A DNA stretch of 64,000 bases from a virus. Lineage: Duplodnaviria > Heunggongvirae > Uroviricota > Caudoviricetes. Shown here piece by piece: positions 2,154 to 6,398 of this stretch. The notes beneath the pieces were generated by a model. The model was not told the origin of the DNA and did not search any database. It saw nothing but the letters and a program-made list of their open reading frames with translations. Where the stretch lies: the IMG/VR virus record IMGVR_UViG_2974574300_000001, positions 1 to 64,000 of that record; one strand, 5' to 3'. Every line of letters begins with the position of its first letter. Position 1 is the stretch's first letter. Made by a program: the position numbers and the translations under genes.

Positions 2154-2230
2154 CTCTGTTTAGCTCAGCTTGGTAGAGCGTTCCGTTTGGGGCGGTAAGG
2201 CCGGAGGTTCAAGTCCTCCAACAGAGACCA
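2154..2230 (+). tRNA. tRNA-Pro (anticodon TGG)
   Basis: 7 bp acceptor CTCTGTT/AACAGAG, D-arm GCTC..GAGC, anticodon loop TTTGGGG, T-arm GGAGG-TTCAAGT-CCTCC, encoded CCA. Confidence 0.75.
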
Positions 2231-2237
2231 AATTAAT

Positions 2238-2315
2238 GTTCCAGTAGACAAAATGGTATAGTCACCACTCTTTCAAAGTGGATATTTGAGGGTTCAAATC
2301 CCTTCTGGAACGCCA
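2238..2315 (+). tRNA. tRNA-Glu (anticodon TTC)
   Basis: acceptor GTTCCAG/CTGGAAC, anticodon stem CCACT/AGTGG loop CTTTCAA, T-arm GAGGG-TTCAAAT-CCCTT, CCA. Confidence 0.7.
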
Positions 2316-2406
2316 GTTTTGACAGAAGACCAATTACAGCAAACTTAATCTTATTCATCTGAAGGTAAATCGGACAAAGAAGAGATTTGGTCTGGTCATT
2401 AAGAAT

Positions 2407-2483
2407 TGCGGGTATAGAGAAAGGGCGTCTCACATGTCTCATTAGCATGGTATCGGCAGGTTCGACTCCTGCACCCGCCTCCA
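2407..2483 (+). tRNA. tRNA-Met (anticodon CAT)
   Basis: anticodon stem CATGT/GCATG loop CTCATTA, T-arm GCAGG-TTCGACT-CCTGC, acceptor with 1:72 mismatch, CCA. Confidence 0.6.
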
Positions 2484-2566
2484 AATTTACAGAAGACCGT
2501 TTACAGCAATATTTATTAAATTTTTAGCGGAAAAATTGAAAGATACGGTCTGGTAATACTAAACAT

Positions 2567-2643
2567 GGTTAGGAAGCACATAAGGTATGTGCGGTCGCCT
2601 GTTAAGCGAATGGCACAGGGTTCGAATCCCTGACTAACCGCCA
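2567..2643 (+). tRNA. tRNA-Asn (anticodon GTT)
   Basis: acceptor GGTTAGG/ACTAACC, D-stem GCAC/GTGC, anticodon loop CTGTTAA, T-arm CAGGG-TTCGAAT-CCCTG, CCA. Confidence 0.7.
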
Positions 2644-2712
2644 AATTTAGGAGAGAAGCGATTGCTCACCGATTTGTAAGGTGCAAGTCCTTAGCCTGAA
2701 TAGAAATTAAAT

Positions 2713-2800
2713 GTGTCGTTATCCCGTAGATGGTAGCGGTGGGGACTGTAAATCCCTTGTCATTGAGACTCGGTAGGTTCGACTCCTACACGGCACACCA
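2713..2800 (+). tRNA. tRNA-Tyr (anticodon GTA), long variable arm
   Basis: acceptor GTGTCGT/ACGGCAC, anticodon stem GGGGA/TCCCT loop CTGTAAA, long variable arm, T-arm GTAGG-TTCGACT-CCTAC, CCA. Confidence 0.7.
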
Positions 2801-2805
2801 ATAAA

Positions 2806-2882
2806 GGTTATGTAGTTTAATTTGGTTAAAATACTCCCTGTCACGGGAGATGATGAGGGTTCAAATCCCTTCGTAACCGCCA
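2806..2882 (+). tRNA. tRNA-Asp (anticodon GTC)
   Basis: acceptor GGTTATG/CGTAACC, canonical Asp anticodon loop CTGTCAC (weak stem), T-arm GAGGG-TTCAAAT-CCCTT, CCA. Confidence 0.6.
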
Positions 2883-3310
2883 ATTTTGAGAGGGCTATTT
2901 AGCCCCTCCCTTAAAGAGTTCTTACGAGTATTCTTTAAAGGAGCAGAAGACCAAATTCAGCAAGTTACTTAAAATTTCAAGCCAATTTAATTTTGAAAAA
3001 TTTAAAACTTGGTCTGGCTCAACAAATTTACAGAAGACCATTTACAGCAAAACTTAAACAATCTATTTCTCGGTAAAGAAAAGGAGAAGGTTCGATTCCT
3101 TCACTCGGCAGGTGTCGAGTTGGTGTAATGGTAGCACTTAAGATGATAAACAACGGTCTGGTAATTATCTTTGTAGATAAGTTATTAAGCTTACCTGTGA
3201 GTATGCGACCACAAAGGGTGAAAGGGTAAATTCTAGATTTAAACCCAAAAAGGCACATCGCTACAGACCTTAAGCAAGTCTGGGTAGCTTATCTACAAAG
3301 ATAATTTAAT

Positions 3311-3386
3311 GGAAGTGTAGCAGAATGGTGATGCGGCAGACTTTTAATCTGACAGGCGATGGGTTCGAATCCCTCCACTTCTACCA
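3311..3386 (+). tRNA. tRNA-Lys (anticodon TTT)
   Basis: acceptor GGAAGTG/CACTTCT, anticodon loop CTTTTAA, T-loop TTCGAAT, CCA. Confidence 0.65.
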
Positions 3387-3390
3387 ATAT

Positions 3391-3467
3391 GGTTCAGTCG
3401 CAGATAAGGTAATGCAAGGGTCTCATAAGCCCTATGAATGTGGGTTCGATTCCCATCTGAACCTCCA
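3391..3467 (+). tRNA. tRNA-Met or tRNA-Ile2 (anticodon CAT)
   Basis: acceptor GGTTCAG/CTGAACC, anticodon stem AGGGT/GCCCT loop CTCATAA, T-arm GTGGG-TTCGATT-CCCAT, CCA. Confidence 0.7.
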
Positions 3468-3469
3468 AT

Positions 3470-3544
3470 TGTGGGTTAGCATAAATGGTAATGCAAACGG
3501 CTGATAACCGTTAGAAGAGGGTTCGATACCCTCACCTACAACCA
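3470..3544 (+). tRNA. tRNA-Ile (anticodon GAT)
   Basis: acceptor TGTGGGT/ACCTACA, anticodon stem AACGG/CCGTT loop CTGATAA, T-arm GAGGG-TTCGATA-CCCTC, CCA. Confidence 0.7.
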
Positions 3545-3559
3545 ATTTCAATAAAGTTG

Positions 3560-3588
3560 TTGACATTGAGATGTGACTACTTTATAGT
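3560..3588 (+). promoter_or_regulatory. sigma70-like promoter (TTGACA-17-TATAGT) inside tRNA array
   Basis: TTGACA 3560-3565, 17 nt spacer, TATAGT 3583-3588. Confidence 0.6.
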
Positions 3589-3880
3589 AACTAAAATACT
3601 TCAGAATATGTATAATTCAAACACCAATACATGAGCGTTAGACGTAACACAATGTGGGGAAATTTGTTGTACATATTCTGAATAGTTTTCGTTGCGTAGC
3701 GTCTATTTTGCAAATTTAAAATAAATGCAAACGACAATGTTTTTCTGGCAGTAGCTTGATAGGCTAAACACCAGTGAGGTCTTCCAATCCCTCATCAAAG
3801 AATTTGGCGTACTAGCCACGGTATGATTAATAAGGTGGGCATCTTTAAGGGCTTTCTAAGAGAGTCTTTAAAGATAATTA

Positions 3881-3962
3881 CGGGGCGTATCTCAGCGGTC
3901 TTCTAAACCGCCGTTAACCGAGTAAGTGGAGTATGCGGGTTCGAGTCCTGCCGCCTCGACCA
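3881..3962 (+). tRNA. non-canonical tRNA-like gene (anticodon-like hairpin with TCT, no clear D-arm)
   Basis: acceptor CGGGGCG/CGCCTCG, T-arm GCGGG-TTCGAGT-CCTGC, CCA; only a 5 bp/7 nt hairpin GCGGT-CTTCTAA-ACCGC placed where the D-arm should be, followed by 23 nt extra region. Confidence 0.45.
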
Positions 3963-4104
3963 ATTAGTTAGCAGATTACTTAGACGACCTAAGCGGGTCT
4001 TCCTGTAGGGAGGTGGTCTGTATCTCATGTTTTCCAGAACATGTAAATAATCTGAGAAGGGGCTTTACAGTGTTGAGATAATACGGTAAGCTTCGAATTA
4101 TAGT

Positions 4105-4187
4105 ATGGGACGATGTTAAGACTCTAAGGCATGAGCAACGGCTTCCAACACCGTTTCAAAGGGGTTCAACTCCTCCGTCCCATGCCA
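4105..4187 (+). tRNA. non-canonical tRNA-like gene (aberrant D region; anticodon uncertain, possibly CCA)
   Basis: perfect 7 bp acceptor ATGGGAC/GTCCCAT, T-loop TTCAACT, CCA; 26 nt between acceptor and candidate anticodon hairpin ACGGC-TTCCAAC-ACCGT. Confidence 0.45.
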
Positions 4188-4200
4188 AAGTCTTATTAGG

Positions 4201-4288
4201 GGTAGGTAGCGGCTAATGGTAGCCAAACTGTCTTGAAAACAGTTGCCACTGTAGAGATACGGTGAGGGTTCGACTCCTTTACTTACCG
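4201..4288 (+). tRNA. tRNA-Ser (anticodon TGA), type II
   Basis: acceptor GGTAGGT/ACTTACC, 3 bp D-stem, anticodon stem ACTGT/ACAGT loop CTTGAAA, long variable arm, T-loop TTCGACT; CCA not fully encoded. Confidence 0.7.
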
Positions 4289-4545
4289 CCTAATAAGATT
4301 TAAAGCCAAGCTTCATTCGGATGTTGCTTTGGTATCCCTCGTGTATTGTCGTACACACTGATAAAACACCTAGTAGGTGTCACGGAGAAGAGATAATATC
4401 AAGCTCTCCAAAGGTTCTAGTCACCGGATTAAACAAGACTATGCAAAGACCTTTTTAGGTCTTTTTAGAGGGCTTCTAAGGTTATTACAGCTTGTTGTGG
4501 AACCTTGTTGCTTAGGTTCTTAGAAGTTCTCTAAAAAGATTTAAT

Positions 4546-4623
4546 GGGAGATTGACGGTAATTGGTAAACCTACCTCGCTTAGAACGAGGTGTTTGAGGG
4601 TTCGAATCCCTTGTCTCCTACCA
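4546..4623 (+). tRNA. tRNA with anticodon TAG (Leu by anticodon) but short variable arm
   Basis: acceptor GGGAGAT/GTCTCCT, anticodon stem CCTCG/CGAGG loop CTTAGAA, 5 nt variable loop, T-arm GAGGG-TTCGAAT-CCCTT, CCA. Confidence 0.6.
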
Positions 4624-4630
4624 AATTAAT

Positions 4631-4706
4631 GCAGGTGTAGCAAAATGGTTATGCGGCTGACTCTTAATCAGTAAGACGATGGGTTCAATTCCCTCCACCT
4701 GTACCA
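4631..4706 (+). tRNA. tRNA-Lys (anticodon CTT)
   Basis: acceptor GCAGGTG/CACCTGT, anticodon loop CTCTTAA, T-loop TTCAATT, CCA; paralog of 3311-3386. Confidence 0.6.
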
Positions 4707-4712
4707 AACATT

Positions 4713-4788
4713 GGGGATGTAGTTTACATGGTTAAAACATAAGTTTTGCAAACTTGGGAACTGAGTTCAATTCTCAGTGACTCCACCA
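4713..4788 (+). tRNA. tRNA-Ala (anticodon TGC)
   Basis: G3:U70 in acceptor, anticodon stem TAAGT/ACTTG loop TTTGCAA, T-arm CTGAG-TTCAATT-CTCAG, CCA. Confidence 0.6.
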
Positions 4789-4794
4789 ATTAGT

Positions 4795-4869
4795 GCATCC
4801 ATAGTTTAAACGGGAAAATTACAGTCTTCCAAACTGAGGTTGAGGGTTCGATTCCCTCTGGATGCTCCA
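4795..4869 (+). tRNA. tRNA-Trp (anticodon CCA)
   Basis: acceptor GCATCCA/TGGATGC, anticodon loop CTTCCAA, T-arm GAGGG-TTCGATT-CCCTC, CCA. Confidence 0.7.
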
Positions 4870-4875
4870 AACAAT

Positions 4876-4952
4876 GCTGCTTTCGTATAATTGGCTATTA
4901 CACATCCCTTGTAAGGATGGAAATGCAGGTTCGAGTCCTGTGAGCAGCACCA
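4876..4952 (+). tRNA. tRNA-Thr (anticodon TGT)
   Basis: acceptor GCTGCTT/GAGCAGC, anticodon stem CATCC/GGATG loop CTTGTAA, T-arm GCAGG-TTCGAGT-CCTGT, CCA. Confidence 0.7.
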
Positions 4953-5047
4953 ATTCAGAGGTCAAGTGAAAGACCGCTGGTGTCAACTGAAGACCGTAAC
5001 AAATTCCACGGAGTTGAGTTAGCGGCACAACTTCAGACCTCTTTCAC

Positions 5048-5122
5048 ACTCGCTTAGTTTATATGGTAAAACATCACCCTTACAAGATGAAGAAAAAGGT
5101 TCAAGTCCTTTAGTGAGTACCA
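5048..5122 (+). tRNA. tRNA-Val (anticodon TAC)
   Basis: acceptor ACTCGCT/AGTGAGT, D-stem GTTT/AAAC, anticodon loop CTTACAA, T-arm AAAGG-TTCAAGT-CCTTT, CCA. Confidence 0.65.
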
Positions 5123-5123
5123 T

Positions 5124-5202
5124 GTTCCAGTATCCCAATTGGCAGAGAGGCCAGACTTAAAATCTGTGTTATGTATCGGTTCGAATCCGATATGGAGTAC
5201 CA
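5124..5202 (+). tRNA. tRNA with anticodon TAA (Leu by anticodon), short variable arm
   Basis: acceptor GTTCCAG/ATGGAGT (6 of 7 pairs), anticodon stem CCAGA/TCTGT loop CTTAAAA, T-arm ATCGG-TTCGAAT-CCGAT, CCA. Confidence 0.5.
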
Positions 5203-5207
5203 ATTTT

Positions 5208-5283
5208 AGCGGTATAGCATAACTGGCAATGCAGCAGTCTCTGAAGCTGTCCTATTAAGGTTCAAATCCTTATGCCGCTGCCA
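5208..5283 (+). tRNA. tRNA-Gln (anticodon CTG)
   Basis: acceptor AGCGGTA/TGCCGCT, anticodon loop CTCTGAA, T-arm TAAGG-TTCAAAT-CCTTA, CCA. Confidence 0.6.
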
Positions 5284-5314
5284 CTTCTAAGGGTTCTTAC
5301 GAGAGTCCTTAAAT

Positions 5315-5390
5315 GTGGCCTTATCATAAACGGTAATGACCCATGCTGTGAACATGGTCTATACGGGTTCAAATCCCGTAGGTCACCCCA
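5315..5390 (+). tRNA. tRNA-His (anticodon GTG)
   Basis: acceptor GTGGCCT/AGGTCAC, discriminator C, anticodon stem CCATG/CATGG loop CTGTGAA, T-arm ACGGG-TTCAAAT-CCCGT, CCA. Confidence 0.7.
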
Positions 5391-5396
5391 ATTTAT

Positions 5397-5472
5397 AGTC
5401 CAAGTAGCTTATATGGTTAAAGCGCGTGTCTGAAAAACATGAGAAGAGGGTTCAAATCCCACTGGACTACCA
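5397..5472 (+). tRNA. tRNA-Phe (anticodon GAA)
   Basis: D-stem GCTT/AAGC, anticodon stem CGTGT/ACATG loop CTGAAAA, T-loop TTCAAAT, CCA. Confidence 0.65.
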
Positions 5473-5489
5473 ATTTTCAAAGGTGCTTA

Positions 5490-6224
5490 ATGAAAGAGAT
5501 GACAGGACAAGGTAAGGAGATTTTTAATCTCTTAAAAACCGGTAAAGGGTTTTCTAACCCACTTATTACTGGTGCAGTAGTTCTCGGTGGAACCGTAGCT
5601 GCCTCTACATCACTTGTAAGCTCTATTAGCTCTGTAACAGACCCTACAATGAAGGAGAAGCTTGTTGCTGCTGGACTCACAACAGTCCTTCTAAACAGCT
5701 TTACAACAAGCCTGACAAGCACTACAGCAACTACTAAGACCCTAACAGACTATGGTCAAAAGTCTATTGATGAGTTTTCATCACGTATGCAGGTAGCAAA
5801 GGGGTATTCCAATGTTATGGGTGCAGCAGGAGAACAAGTTGGTTGTACACCATTTAGTGGTATTATGGGTGTTGCTACAGAGTATGGTCAGCAAGCTATT
5901 GACACGATTAACAGCACACTAGACAGTGTTAACGGTGTGTTAAGTGACTTACAAGACGCTATTGATAAGGGTCTTGATACTGTTTCTGATTTAGCTAACC
6001 AAGCTGTTAGCAAGATTAATGAAGGTATCTCAAAGATTACAGCTTATGCAGATGAAGTTGTGCAGATGATTGAAGAAGAAGCTGCCCTTATTGCAGAGTA
6101 CCTTAAAACGAATATCAATGGGTTCTTAGCAGGTATCTTACCAGACTGGTTTGATGATGCTTGGAAAACTGGTGTAATCGACACTATTGCAACACCAGAA
6201 ATGAAGAACGCATTACAGAAATAA
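5490..6224 (+). CDS. hypothetical protein (Ser/Thr-rich N-terminal half)
   Basis: ORF track 5439-6224 trimmed to first ATG after tRNA-Phe; AGGTG RBS. Confidence 0.5.
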   Translation: MKEMTGQGKEIFNLLKTGKGFSNPLITGAVVLGGTVAASTSLVSSISSVTDPTMKEKLVAAGLTTVLLNSFTTSLTSTTATTKTLTDYGQKSIDEFSSRMQVAKGYSNVMGAAGEQVGCTPFSGIMGVATEYGQQAIDTINSTLDSVNGVLSDLQDAIDKGLDTVSDLANQAVSKINEGISKITAYADEVVQMIEEEAALIAEYLKTNINGFLAGILPDWFDDAWKTGVIDTIATPEMKNALQK

Positions 6225-6225
6225 T

Positions 6226-6318
6226 GGAAGATTAACCCTAAAAGGTAAGGGAGCAGTTTGCTAAACTGCCAGTAGCTGAGAAATCGGTGTACCAGTTCAA
6301 GTCTGGTATCTTCCTCCA
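6226..6318 (+). tRNA. tRNA-Ser (anticodon GCT), type II
   Basis: perfect acceptor GGAAGAT/ATCTTCC, 3 bp D-stem CCC/GGG, anticodon stem GCAGT/ACTGC loop TTGCTAA, long variable arm, T-arm ACCAG-TTCAAGT-CTGGT, CCA. Confidence 0.75.
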
Positions 6319-6322
6319 ATCT

Positions 6323-6398
6323 GAATCCGTGACAGAAATGGATATGTGCCTGTCTGCAAAACAGGTTTATAAGGGTTCAAGTCCCTTCGGATTCTCCA
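6323..6398 (+). tRNA. tRNA-Cys (anticodon GCA)
   Basis: acceptor GAATCCG/CGGATTC, anticodon stem CCTGT/ACAGG loop CTGCAAA, T-arm AAGGG-TTCAAGT-CCCTT, CCA. Confidence 0.75.

Follow-up and report, generated by a model that had tools for sequence, protein, structure and literature searches.

We have found that two tRNA genes in the window (the whole 64,000-nucleotide stretch of phage DNA analysed here) are very probably phage leucine tRNAs of a class-I-like lineage with short variable loops, which the leucyl-tRNA synthetase (LeuRS) of the host would charge and which would supplement codon reading. Members of this short-arm lineage are common in virulent enterobacterial phages, for example the Felix O1-like Ounavirinae and the T5-like Demerecviridae, and also across many contigs of uncultured viruses. 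The two genes, tRNA-Leu(UAG) at 4546-4623 and tRNA-Leu(UAA) at 5124-5202, both on the + strand, had been picked out by a first-pass annotation made from the letters of the DNA, which read leucine anticodons (TAG and TAA) in well-formed anticodon loops next to variable loops of only 5-7 nt. ARAGORN and Rfam agree on both genes; the anticodon loops, CUUAGAA and CUUAAAA, have 7 nt each, and the variable loops are indeed short, with 5 nt (UGUUU) and 7 nt (GUUAUGU), respectively. The same annotation took the long variable arm to be an identity element of bacterial tRNA-Leu, and held that either identity is set differently in these genes or the anticodon assignment is off. The leucine anticodons and short arms on which this alternative was built stand, but its premise does not: the long arm is not an identity element for LeuRS of the E. 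coli type (PMC9976931; PMC2377443), the genes keep host-like determinants, and the assignment of UAG and UAA to a normal 7-nt loop is common to ARAGORN, Rfam and the covariation of 104 homologues. The identity puzzle thus vanishes, because the arm is no LeuRS determinant in these hosts.

The window phage is a Felix O1-like (Felixounavirus) Salmonella phage. In a blastn search of a phage collection, positions 4200-5500 matched Salmonella phage FM4b (PP068124.1) at 100%, and Felix O1 and many other Felixounavirus genomes at ~97%. Both leucine genes lie in a phage tRNA gene cluster (2154-6398, + strand) in which ARAGORN finds 22 tRNAs, all on the + strand and most with an encoded CCA. Within this cluster it is the leucine tRNAs alone that are without the arm, since the neighbouring tRNA-Ser genes (90 and 93 nt) and tRNA-Tyr gene (88 nt) keep their long arms; tRNA-Ser and tRNA-Tyr retain them because their synthetases need the arm. 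We note that the tRNA-Asp of the window has an abnormal 6-nt anticodon loop.

The Leu(UAG) gene, 78 nt including the encoded CCA, is an intact tRNA gene that both ARAGORN and Rfam recognise. Over all 71 model positions (4547-4619) it scores 44.2 bits with the Rfam tRNA family RF00005, for which the gathering score is 29 bits, and 19 of the 20 cloverleaf pairs are formed. Its acceptor stem (GGGAGAU/GUCUCCU) contains G1.U72 and U7.G66 and is followed by the discriminator A73; the D loop reads (U)AAUUGGUAAA, the anticodon (4581-4583) follows U33, the variable loop (4591-4595) ends in U48, and the T loop is UUCGAAU. Refolding, which the first-pass annotation had proposed as a way of revealing a hidden long arm, gave a plain cloverleaf with no extra arm as the minimum-energy structure of 4546-4623. 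Neither leucine gene has the variable stem-loop of more than 10 nt that defines class II tRNAs, and neither could accommodate one because the genes are only 78-79 nt long including the encoded CCA. Compared with Felix O1, the Leu(UAG) gene differs at 3 positions, a compensatory change of one pair (C27-G43 to U27-A43) accounting for two of them, and further compensated anticodon stems are found in the Leu(UAG) genes of the phages FG1m and Wc4.

What E. coli LeuRS reads in its tRNA has been worked out in detail. A73 is crucial, but neither the anticodon nor the long variable arm is an identity element (PMC9976931), and determinants in E. coli tRNA-Leu include, besides A73, U8-A14, A15-U48, G18-U55 and G19-C56 (PMC2377443). 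SELEX found A15-U48, G18G19 and A20a to be essential for leucylation, the sequence and folding of the arm being uncorrelated with it (PMC9976931), and truncated tRNA-Leu lacking the arm is still charged (PMC9976931; PMC2377443). Both window genes carry, at the level of sequence, A73, U8-A14, A15-U48, G18G19 and A20a. We infer that the host LeuRS would charge both tRNAs with leucine, because a synthetase of the E. coli type reads elements that both genes keep and not the arm; LeuRS can do without the arm, and this is probably why it was lost or never came under selection. Most likely, then, the identity set of these tRNAs is that of host tRNA-Leu minus a dispensable arm. The same features recur in other phages, in that 17/17 distinct short leucine tRNAs from named phages, both window genes included, have A73 and have U48 as the last nucleotide of the variable loop. 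Most of these 17 also have a D region laid out like that of E. coli and T4 tRNA-Leu, with a 3-bp stem, an unpaired 13.22 and a loop of the form A14 A15 U16 U17 G18 G19 N A20a N. A73 together with this D-loop motif occurs in 15/17 short leucine tRNAs, in 6/7 long-arm leucine tRNAs and in 1/151 non-leucine tRNAs from the same loci. We also considered the length of the 8-26 region as a leucine signature and rejected it as non-discriminating, many class I tRNAs also having 20 nt there.

To compare the bodies of these tRNAs with those of all isotypes we used 20 isotype profile HMMs trained on ~2,300 tRNAs of phages and E. coli, from which short leucine tRNAs were left out; anticodons were masked and long arms trimmed. 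The best profile for Leu(UAG) is that of long-arm tRNA-Leu (31.5 bits; the next, Gly, reaches 25.3), and the same profile is best for Leu(UAA), though narrowly (25.2 bits versus 24.4 for Cys). It ranks on top for 132/197 short leucine tRNAs (67%, where the chance level is 5%), and in two-fold cross-validation it wrongly draws ~3 of ~1,100 non-leucine tRNAs (~0.3%), while the cross-validated accuracy of individual isotypes ranges from 28% to 95%. These whole-body profiles took the place of a comparison of D arms by nearest neighbours, in which the UAG type is clearly closest to long-arm tRNA-Leu and the UAA/CAA type is ambiguous, some class I tRNAs being as close to it as long-arm tRNA-Leu. Because of the small profile margin and the ambiguous D arm, we would go no further than to suggest that the Leu(UAA) type also descended from a class II tRNA-Leu.

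Short-arm leucine tRNAs are widespread. Felix O1 has three (UAG, 78 nt; CAA, 78 nt; UAA, 79 nt), and others are found in Mooglevirus Sf19, where they are annotated by tRNAscan-SE, in typing phage 1 (TP1) and in Erwinia phage FIfi106 (caa, aag and taa, at 77-78 nt). Pectobacterium phage Wc4 carries a short UAG gene of 78 nt alongside a long-arm UAA gene of 87 nt. A direct origin of the short genes of Felix O1 from this 87-nt Leu(UAA) can be rejected as the sequences are unrelated, which points to gene replacement and not to deletion of the arm in place. A pattern scan of IMG/VR for the short-arm leucine architecture returned at least 120 loci, and among the loci listed ARAGORN identifies 182 short leucine tRNAs (74-80 nt) that together carry all six leucine anticodons; A73 is present in 154/162 and U48 in 154/162 of the distinct short leucine tRNAs from these loci. 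In a sample that was not selected for leucine, for which IMG/VR was scanned for tRNA-Tyr and the neighbouring tRNAs were counted, 29 of 89 leucine tRNAs were short (60 were long), as compared with none of 89 serine tRNAs and 4 of 112 tyrosine tRNAs (108 long). A scan of GTDB genomes yielded 77 short leucine tRNAs in 120 loci, many of them within dense tRNA arrays.

A gapless alignment of 104 distinct short leucine tRNAs allowed us to ask which positions and pairs are maintained. U8, A14, A15, G18, G19, U33, A35, U48, U54, C56, A58 and A73 show no variation, and conservation of A20a is 90% or more; the IMG/VR pattern, by which the alignment was partly selected, itself contained AATTGG and TTCGAAT (in at least one gene of each locus of the first set), which inflates conservation at those motifs, but left U8, U48, A20a and A73 free. 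Under a cloverleaf model whose D stem has 3 bp and whose variable loop has 5 nt, 98.1% of cells are paired, versus 57.7% in shuffles and 33-44% with slid partners; at every one of the 20 pairs both sides change, and covariation scores 1.07 versus 0.25. The cloverleaf with a short variable loop is therefore real and evolutionarily maintained.

Beyond Felix O1 and its relatives, close counterparts of the window genes are found in T5-like phages (T5, BF23, Salmonella phage 5 and HildyBeyeler), which have 77-nt Leu(UAG) and Leu(UAA) genes and belong to a different family (Demerecviridae) from that of the window phage (Ounavirinae). Like the window genes, these are class-I-like leucine tRNAs with A73, U8 and an encoded CCA; their variable loop has 5 nt and ends in U48, and their D loop, AAUUGGCAUA, with G13.A22, resembles that of E. 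coli tRNA-Leu. Their tRNA-Leu(UAG) is 78-80% identical to that of the window, which differs by an additional nucleotide in the D loop and by C11xC24, a mismatch unless the D stem is shifted, whereas the Leu(UAA) of the window is of a second type of sequence (UA-NCCC-AAUUGGCAGAGG) unlike that of the T5-like phages. The curated record of Salmonella phage 5 (AJ604531) lists two 77-nt leucine tRNAs and notes that its tRNA-Leu(UUA), with the anticodon changed to CUA, is an effective amber suppressor; the inserted amino acid is not named. This note is indirect evidence that the E. coli machinery charges short-arm tRNA-Leu of the T5 family and makes use of it, and the functional evidence for that family rests on a GenBank annotation because our literature searches found no explicit description of a short-arm phage tRNA-Leu.

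The class II counterparts are the E. coli and Salmonella genes leuW (UAG), leuZ (UAA), leuX (CAA) and leuQPV (CAG), together with the tRNA-Leu of T4. They have in common with the phage genes their anticodons, A73, U8-A14, A15-U48, G18G19 and A20a, as well as a 3-bp D stem with 13.22 unpaired. They differ in being 85-87 nt long, with a variable stem-loop of 13-15 nt in place of 5-7 nt, and in having G1-C72 where the phage genes have G1.U72; in addition, leuW has G37 where the phage Leu(UAG) has A37. A recent capture of Leu(UAG) from the host can be rejected, since blastn finds no match to it in 5,426 E. coli genomes at E values up to 10.

Enterobacterial genes use CUG for ~50% of their leucine codons and make little use of UUA or CUA. 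The window has a G+C content of 39.4%, and in its 54 open reading frames of at least 120 aa leucine is encoded by UUA (26.6%), CUU (29.0%), CUG (14.9%), UUG (13.0%), CUA (11.0%) and CUC (5.6%). Set beside these general host figures, UUA/UUG and CUA (CUN) are used more by the phage than by the host. The two tRNAs would thus be expected to supplement the decoding of UUA/UUG and of CUA (CUN), and the UAA and UAG anticodons appear to fit the usual codon-supplementation role of phage tRNAs.

The Leu(UAA) gene has a history of its own, which the first-pass annotation overlooked: 5124-5202 is a recombinant with damaged acceptor and D stems. Where Felix O1 (NC_005282.1) and most of its relatives have three leucine genes (UAG, CAA and UAA), the window has two, because a 930-bp deletion fused the CAA and UAA genes into a chimera. 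Base-by-base comparison with the Felix O1 genes (L001:4349-4426 and 5279-5357) shows that nucleotides 1-24 of the window gene (79 nt including the encoded CCA) are those of Leu(CAA) and nucleotides 12-79 those of Leu(UAA). The overlap, tRNA positions 12-24 in the D-loop region (5135-5147, + strand), is a 13-nt microhomology, CCAATTGGCAGAG, that is the only stretch identical between the two parental genes. The flanks match their respective parental contexts without a mismatch, tRNA-Val upstream and tRNA-Gln(CUG) downstream, and lost with the deletion were Arg(ACG), ORF48 and Gln(UUG), along with the 3' part of Leu(CAA) before them and the 5' part of Leu(UAA) after them. The Leu(UAA) gene of the window therefore arose by a microhomology-mediated deletion that joined two paralogues, Leu(CAA) and Leu(UAA). 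The resulting Val-Leu-Gln(CUG) arrangement is present in only 3/253 related genomes, which suggests that the deletion is recent and under no obvious selection. Another phage, IME338, has a junction identical to that of the window, while in FG1m an independent junction in the shared T-loop stretch gave rise to a CAA-bodied hybrid; because the latter junction is independent of the one in the window and IME338, recombination between paralogous tRNA-Leu genes recurs. T5 mutants with deletions in the tRNA region also exist, to judge by the title of a cited paper.

Relative to its Felix O1 parent, the chimera has two new wobbles (C2-G71 to U2.G71 and C10-G25 to U10.G25) and two new mismatches (U7-A66 to G7xA66 and U11-A24 to C11xA24). 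Of the 20 cloverleaf pairs 17 remain, the mismatches being 7-66, 11-24 and 27-43, the last of which was already mismatched in the parent. When the cloverleaf is imposed, its predicted free energy is -2.0 kcal/mol in the chimera as compared with -15.3 kcal/mol in the parent. We used this imposed-cloverleaf energy in place of minimum-energy folding for the AU-rich Leu(UAA), as even the intact parental gene of Felix O1 does not give a cloverleaf at minimum energy and the fold of a single sequence is uninformative there. The four stem changes and the weakened cloverleaf account for the RF00005 score of the chimera, 34.7 bits (5124-5199, model positions 1-71 of 71), which is the lowest in the cluster though above the gathering score of 29. 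The gene nevertheless has U33 and its anticodon (5158-5160) in the 7-nt anticodon loop, a variable loop at 5168-5174, and A73. Judging from the modelled energies, the chimeric tRNA may be partly or wholly defective.

These observations bear on whether Leu(UAA), and possibly both genes, are pseudo-tRNA relics of cluster rearrangement that are unused in translation, a reading to which we give somewhat less than an even chance. The deletion origin of the chimera, its four new stem defects with the attendant loss of predicted stability, its bottom rank against RF00005 and the rarity of the deletion among related genomes are all consistent with it, as are the abnormal anticodon loop of tRNA-Asp and the fact that the independent FG1m chimera was left unannotated as a tRNA by its depositors. 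Against this, most of the cloverleaf of the chimera survives, with the T arm, anticodon arm, D loop and A73 intact, and tertiary contacts or modifications could rescue its folding. For Leu(UAG) the reading fails, as that gene is intact, is conserved across genera with compensatory changes and has all the LeuRS determinants. It is far less probable that the genes are class I tRNAs of another isotype whose anticodons have mutated to leucine ones, so that another amino acid is inserted at UUA or CUA; we regard this as very improbable. A tRNA of this kind would have a short variable loop, the CCCAAUUGGCAGAGG-type D arm is 65-85% identical to the D arms of some Lys, His and Gln tRNAs, and the profile margin for Leu(UAA) is small. 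However, A35 would exclude most synthetases that read the anticodon, by the identity rules in PMC9976931, and neither gene, on our reading, has G3.U70, the alanine determinant. A73, A15-U48 and A20a agree with the leucine identity set, the long-arm leucine profile is on top for both genes and for short leucine tRNAs far above chance, and the presence of all six leucine anticodons among short leucine tRNAs is what would be expected if the synthetase ignores the anticodon.

A different question is whether the short arm is adaptive, in that it would allow phage tRNA-Leu to evade a factor, of the host or of a competitor, that recognises the long arm of class II tRNAs; such a factor might be a nuclease, a toxin or a modifier. 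This seems to us unlikely, if less so than a change of isotype. The trait is frequent and recurrent in phages, making up about a third of the leucine tRNAs in loci unselected for leucine, and the anticodon loop of Leu(UAG) differs from that of host leuW (C32, A37 and A38). There is also a precedent for phage tRNAs that act against defence systems, since a T5 tRNA is reported to counter PARIS (PMC11464382). Nevertheless, the data are explained by neutral loss of an arm that is dispensable, many phages retain long-arm tRNA-Leu, and in our search no bacterial defence emerged that targets class II tRNAs or tRNA-Leu specifically. Bacterial Schlafen was considered as a class-II-specific nuclease and set aside; the system studied so far cleaves Lys, Met, Ala and other tRNAs and shows no specificity for class II (PMC13056530). 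If the short arm were adaptive, decoding of UUA and CUA would continue when host tRNA-Leu is attacked, and roughly one-third of phage leucine tRNAs would have converged on a class-I-like shape that LeuRS still charges.

Returning to the reading we favour, that both genes are short-arm leucine tRNAs charged by the host, we note that phage-encoded copies are exceptions to the textbook rule by which every bacterial-type tRNA-Leu is class II, and that such tRNAs fit the long-standing biochemistry in which E. coli LeuRS ignores the arm. The short-arm type was already known from T5-like phages, and GenBank entries of relatives of the window phage already annotate both features as tRNA-Leu; what goes beyond the public records is only the Leu(UAA) deletion chimera, which is probably impaired, and a rough frequency of the trait in viral contigs. 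That frequency (29/89) is a small but useful figure for studies of phage tRNAs and of synthetase identity. For annotation, a short leucine tRNA in a phage cluster should be accepted and is no reason for a flag, and tRNA genes that are recombinants of paralogues, such as 5124-5202, should be treated as possibly defective. Animal mitochondrial tRNA-Leu likewise has no long arm and is recognised via A73 and A14 (PMC9976931), but it is an unrelated lineage with a degenerate core and a dedicated mitochondrial LeuRS, whereas the short leucine tRNAs of phages have canonical D and T loops.

Both of the short-arm leucine tRNA genes in the window, Leu(UAG) at 4546-4623 and Leu(UAA) at 5124-5202, carry a G1.U72 wobble at the end of the acceptor stem (4546/4620 and 5124/5198, respectively), a feature of 46 of the 104 distinct short-arm phage leucine tRNAs in our alignment (A1), the two window genes being counted among the 46. 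The leucine tRNAs of E. coli and T4, in contrast, have G1-C72. The phage Leu(UAG) differs from its host counterpart in the anticodon loop as well; its loop (window 4579-4585) reads CUUAGAA, with C32, A37 and A38, whereas that of host leuW (in L009, our source of the host sequence) reads UUUAGGU, with G37. In tRNAs that read CUN codons it is G37 that is modified to m1G37. Judging from its sequence, the phage Leu(UAG), which has A37 at this position, would therefore lack the m1G37 modification site.

Short-arm leucine tRNAs also occur in records classified as bacterial, and we found 77 of them in 120 loci from GTDB genome and MAG contigs (L253-L372). Many lie within arrays of 5-34 tRNAs per 8 kb, and 16 are the sole tRNA of their 8-kb locus. 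The loci concerned may lie in prophages, in phage contigs assigned to the wrong bin, or in chromosomal arrays of tRNA genes. We note that the class rule is also broken in the opposite direction, by the tRNA-Asn and tRNA-Thr of T5-like phages (L002 and L004); in these tRNAs (83-86 nt and 87 nt, respectively) the variable region is long, at 13-15 nt, and according to the notes of AJ604531 both become amber suppressors when their anticodons are swapped.

The tRNA cluster of the window phage differs from that of Felix O1 in gene content. Between the boundaries 5123/5124 and 5202/5203, compared with L001:4349-5357 of Felix O1, the window phage lacks tRNA-Leu(CAA), tRNA-Arg(ACG), ORF48 and tRNA-Gln(UUG), all of which are present in most Felix O1-like genomes. 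Some of the tRNA genes of Felix O1 are, in addition, separated by HNH endonuclease ORFs that the window phage does not have. Another difference concerns the plus-strand gene at 2806-2882, which ARAGORN reports as 'tRNA-??? (gtca)'. Compared with tRNA-Asp(GUC) of Felix O1, the run preceding the anticodon is shorter by one C, so that the anticodon loop of the window tRNA-Asp has 6 nt; the missing C may reflect a genuine defect, or else a sequencing error in the homopolymer.

The plus strand also holds two tRNA-like elements that ARAGORN did not call. That at 3880-3962 resembles a T5-like tRNA-Arg(UCU) minus its D arm: its acceptor stem of 7 bp (CGGGGCG/CGCCUCG) is followed by A73-CCA, and it has an anticodon arm with CUUCUAA (UCU, Arg) as its loop, a good T arm and a 23-nt variable region, with a 7-nt linker replacing the D arm. 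Felix O1 (L001:2323-2405) and FG1m carry the element with 100% conservation, whereas other relatives, TP1 and Sf19 among them, have a normal Arg(UCU) within the same Ile-to-Ser interval. The second element, at 4107-4187, combines an acceptor stem and a T arm with an anticodon-like arm whose loop is UUCCAAC (CCA, Trp), but its D region is oversized, at ~22 nt, and its 3' end reads ...A-UGCCA. Conserved copies occur in Felix O1, IME338, TP1 (97.6%) and Pectobacterium phage Wc4 (76%), and compensatory changes in the anticodon stem of the Wc4 copy (AACGG/CCGUU versus GUAGG/CCUAC) suggest that the structure of this element is maintained.
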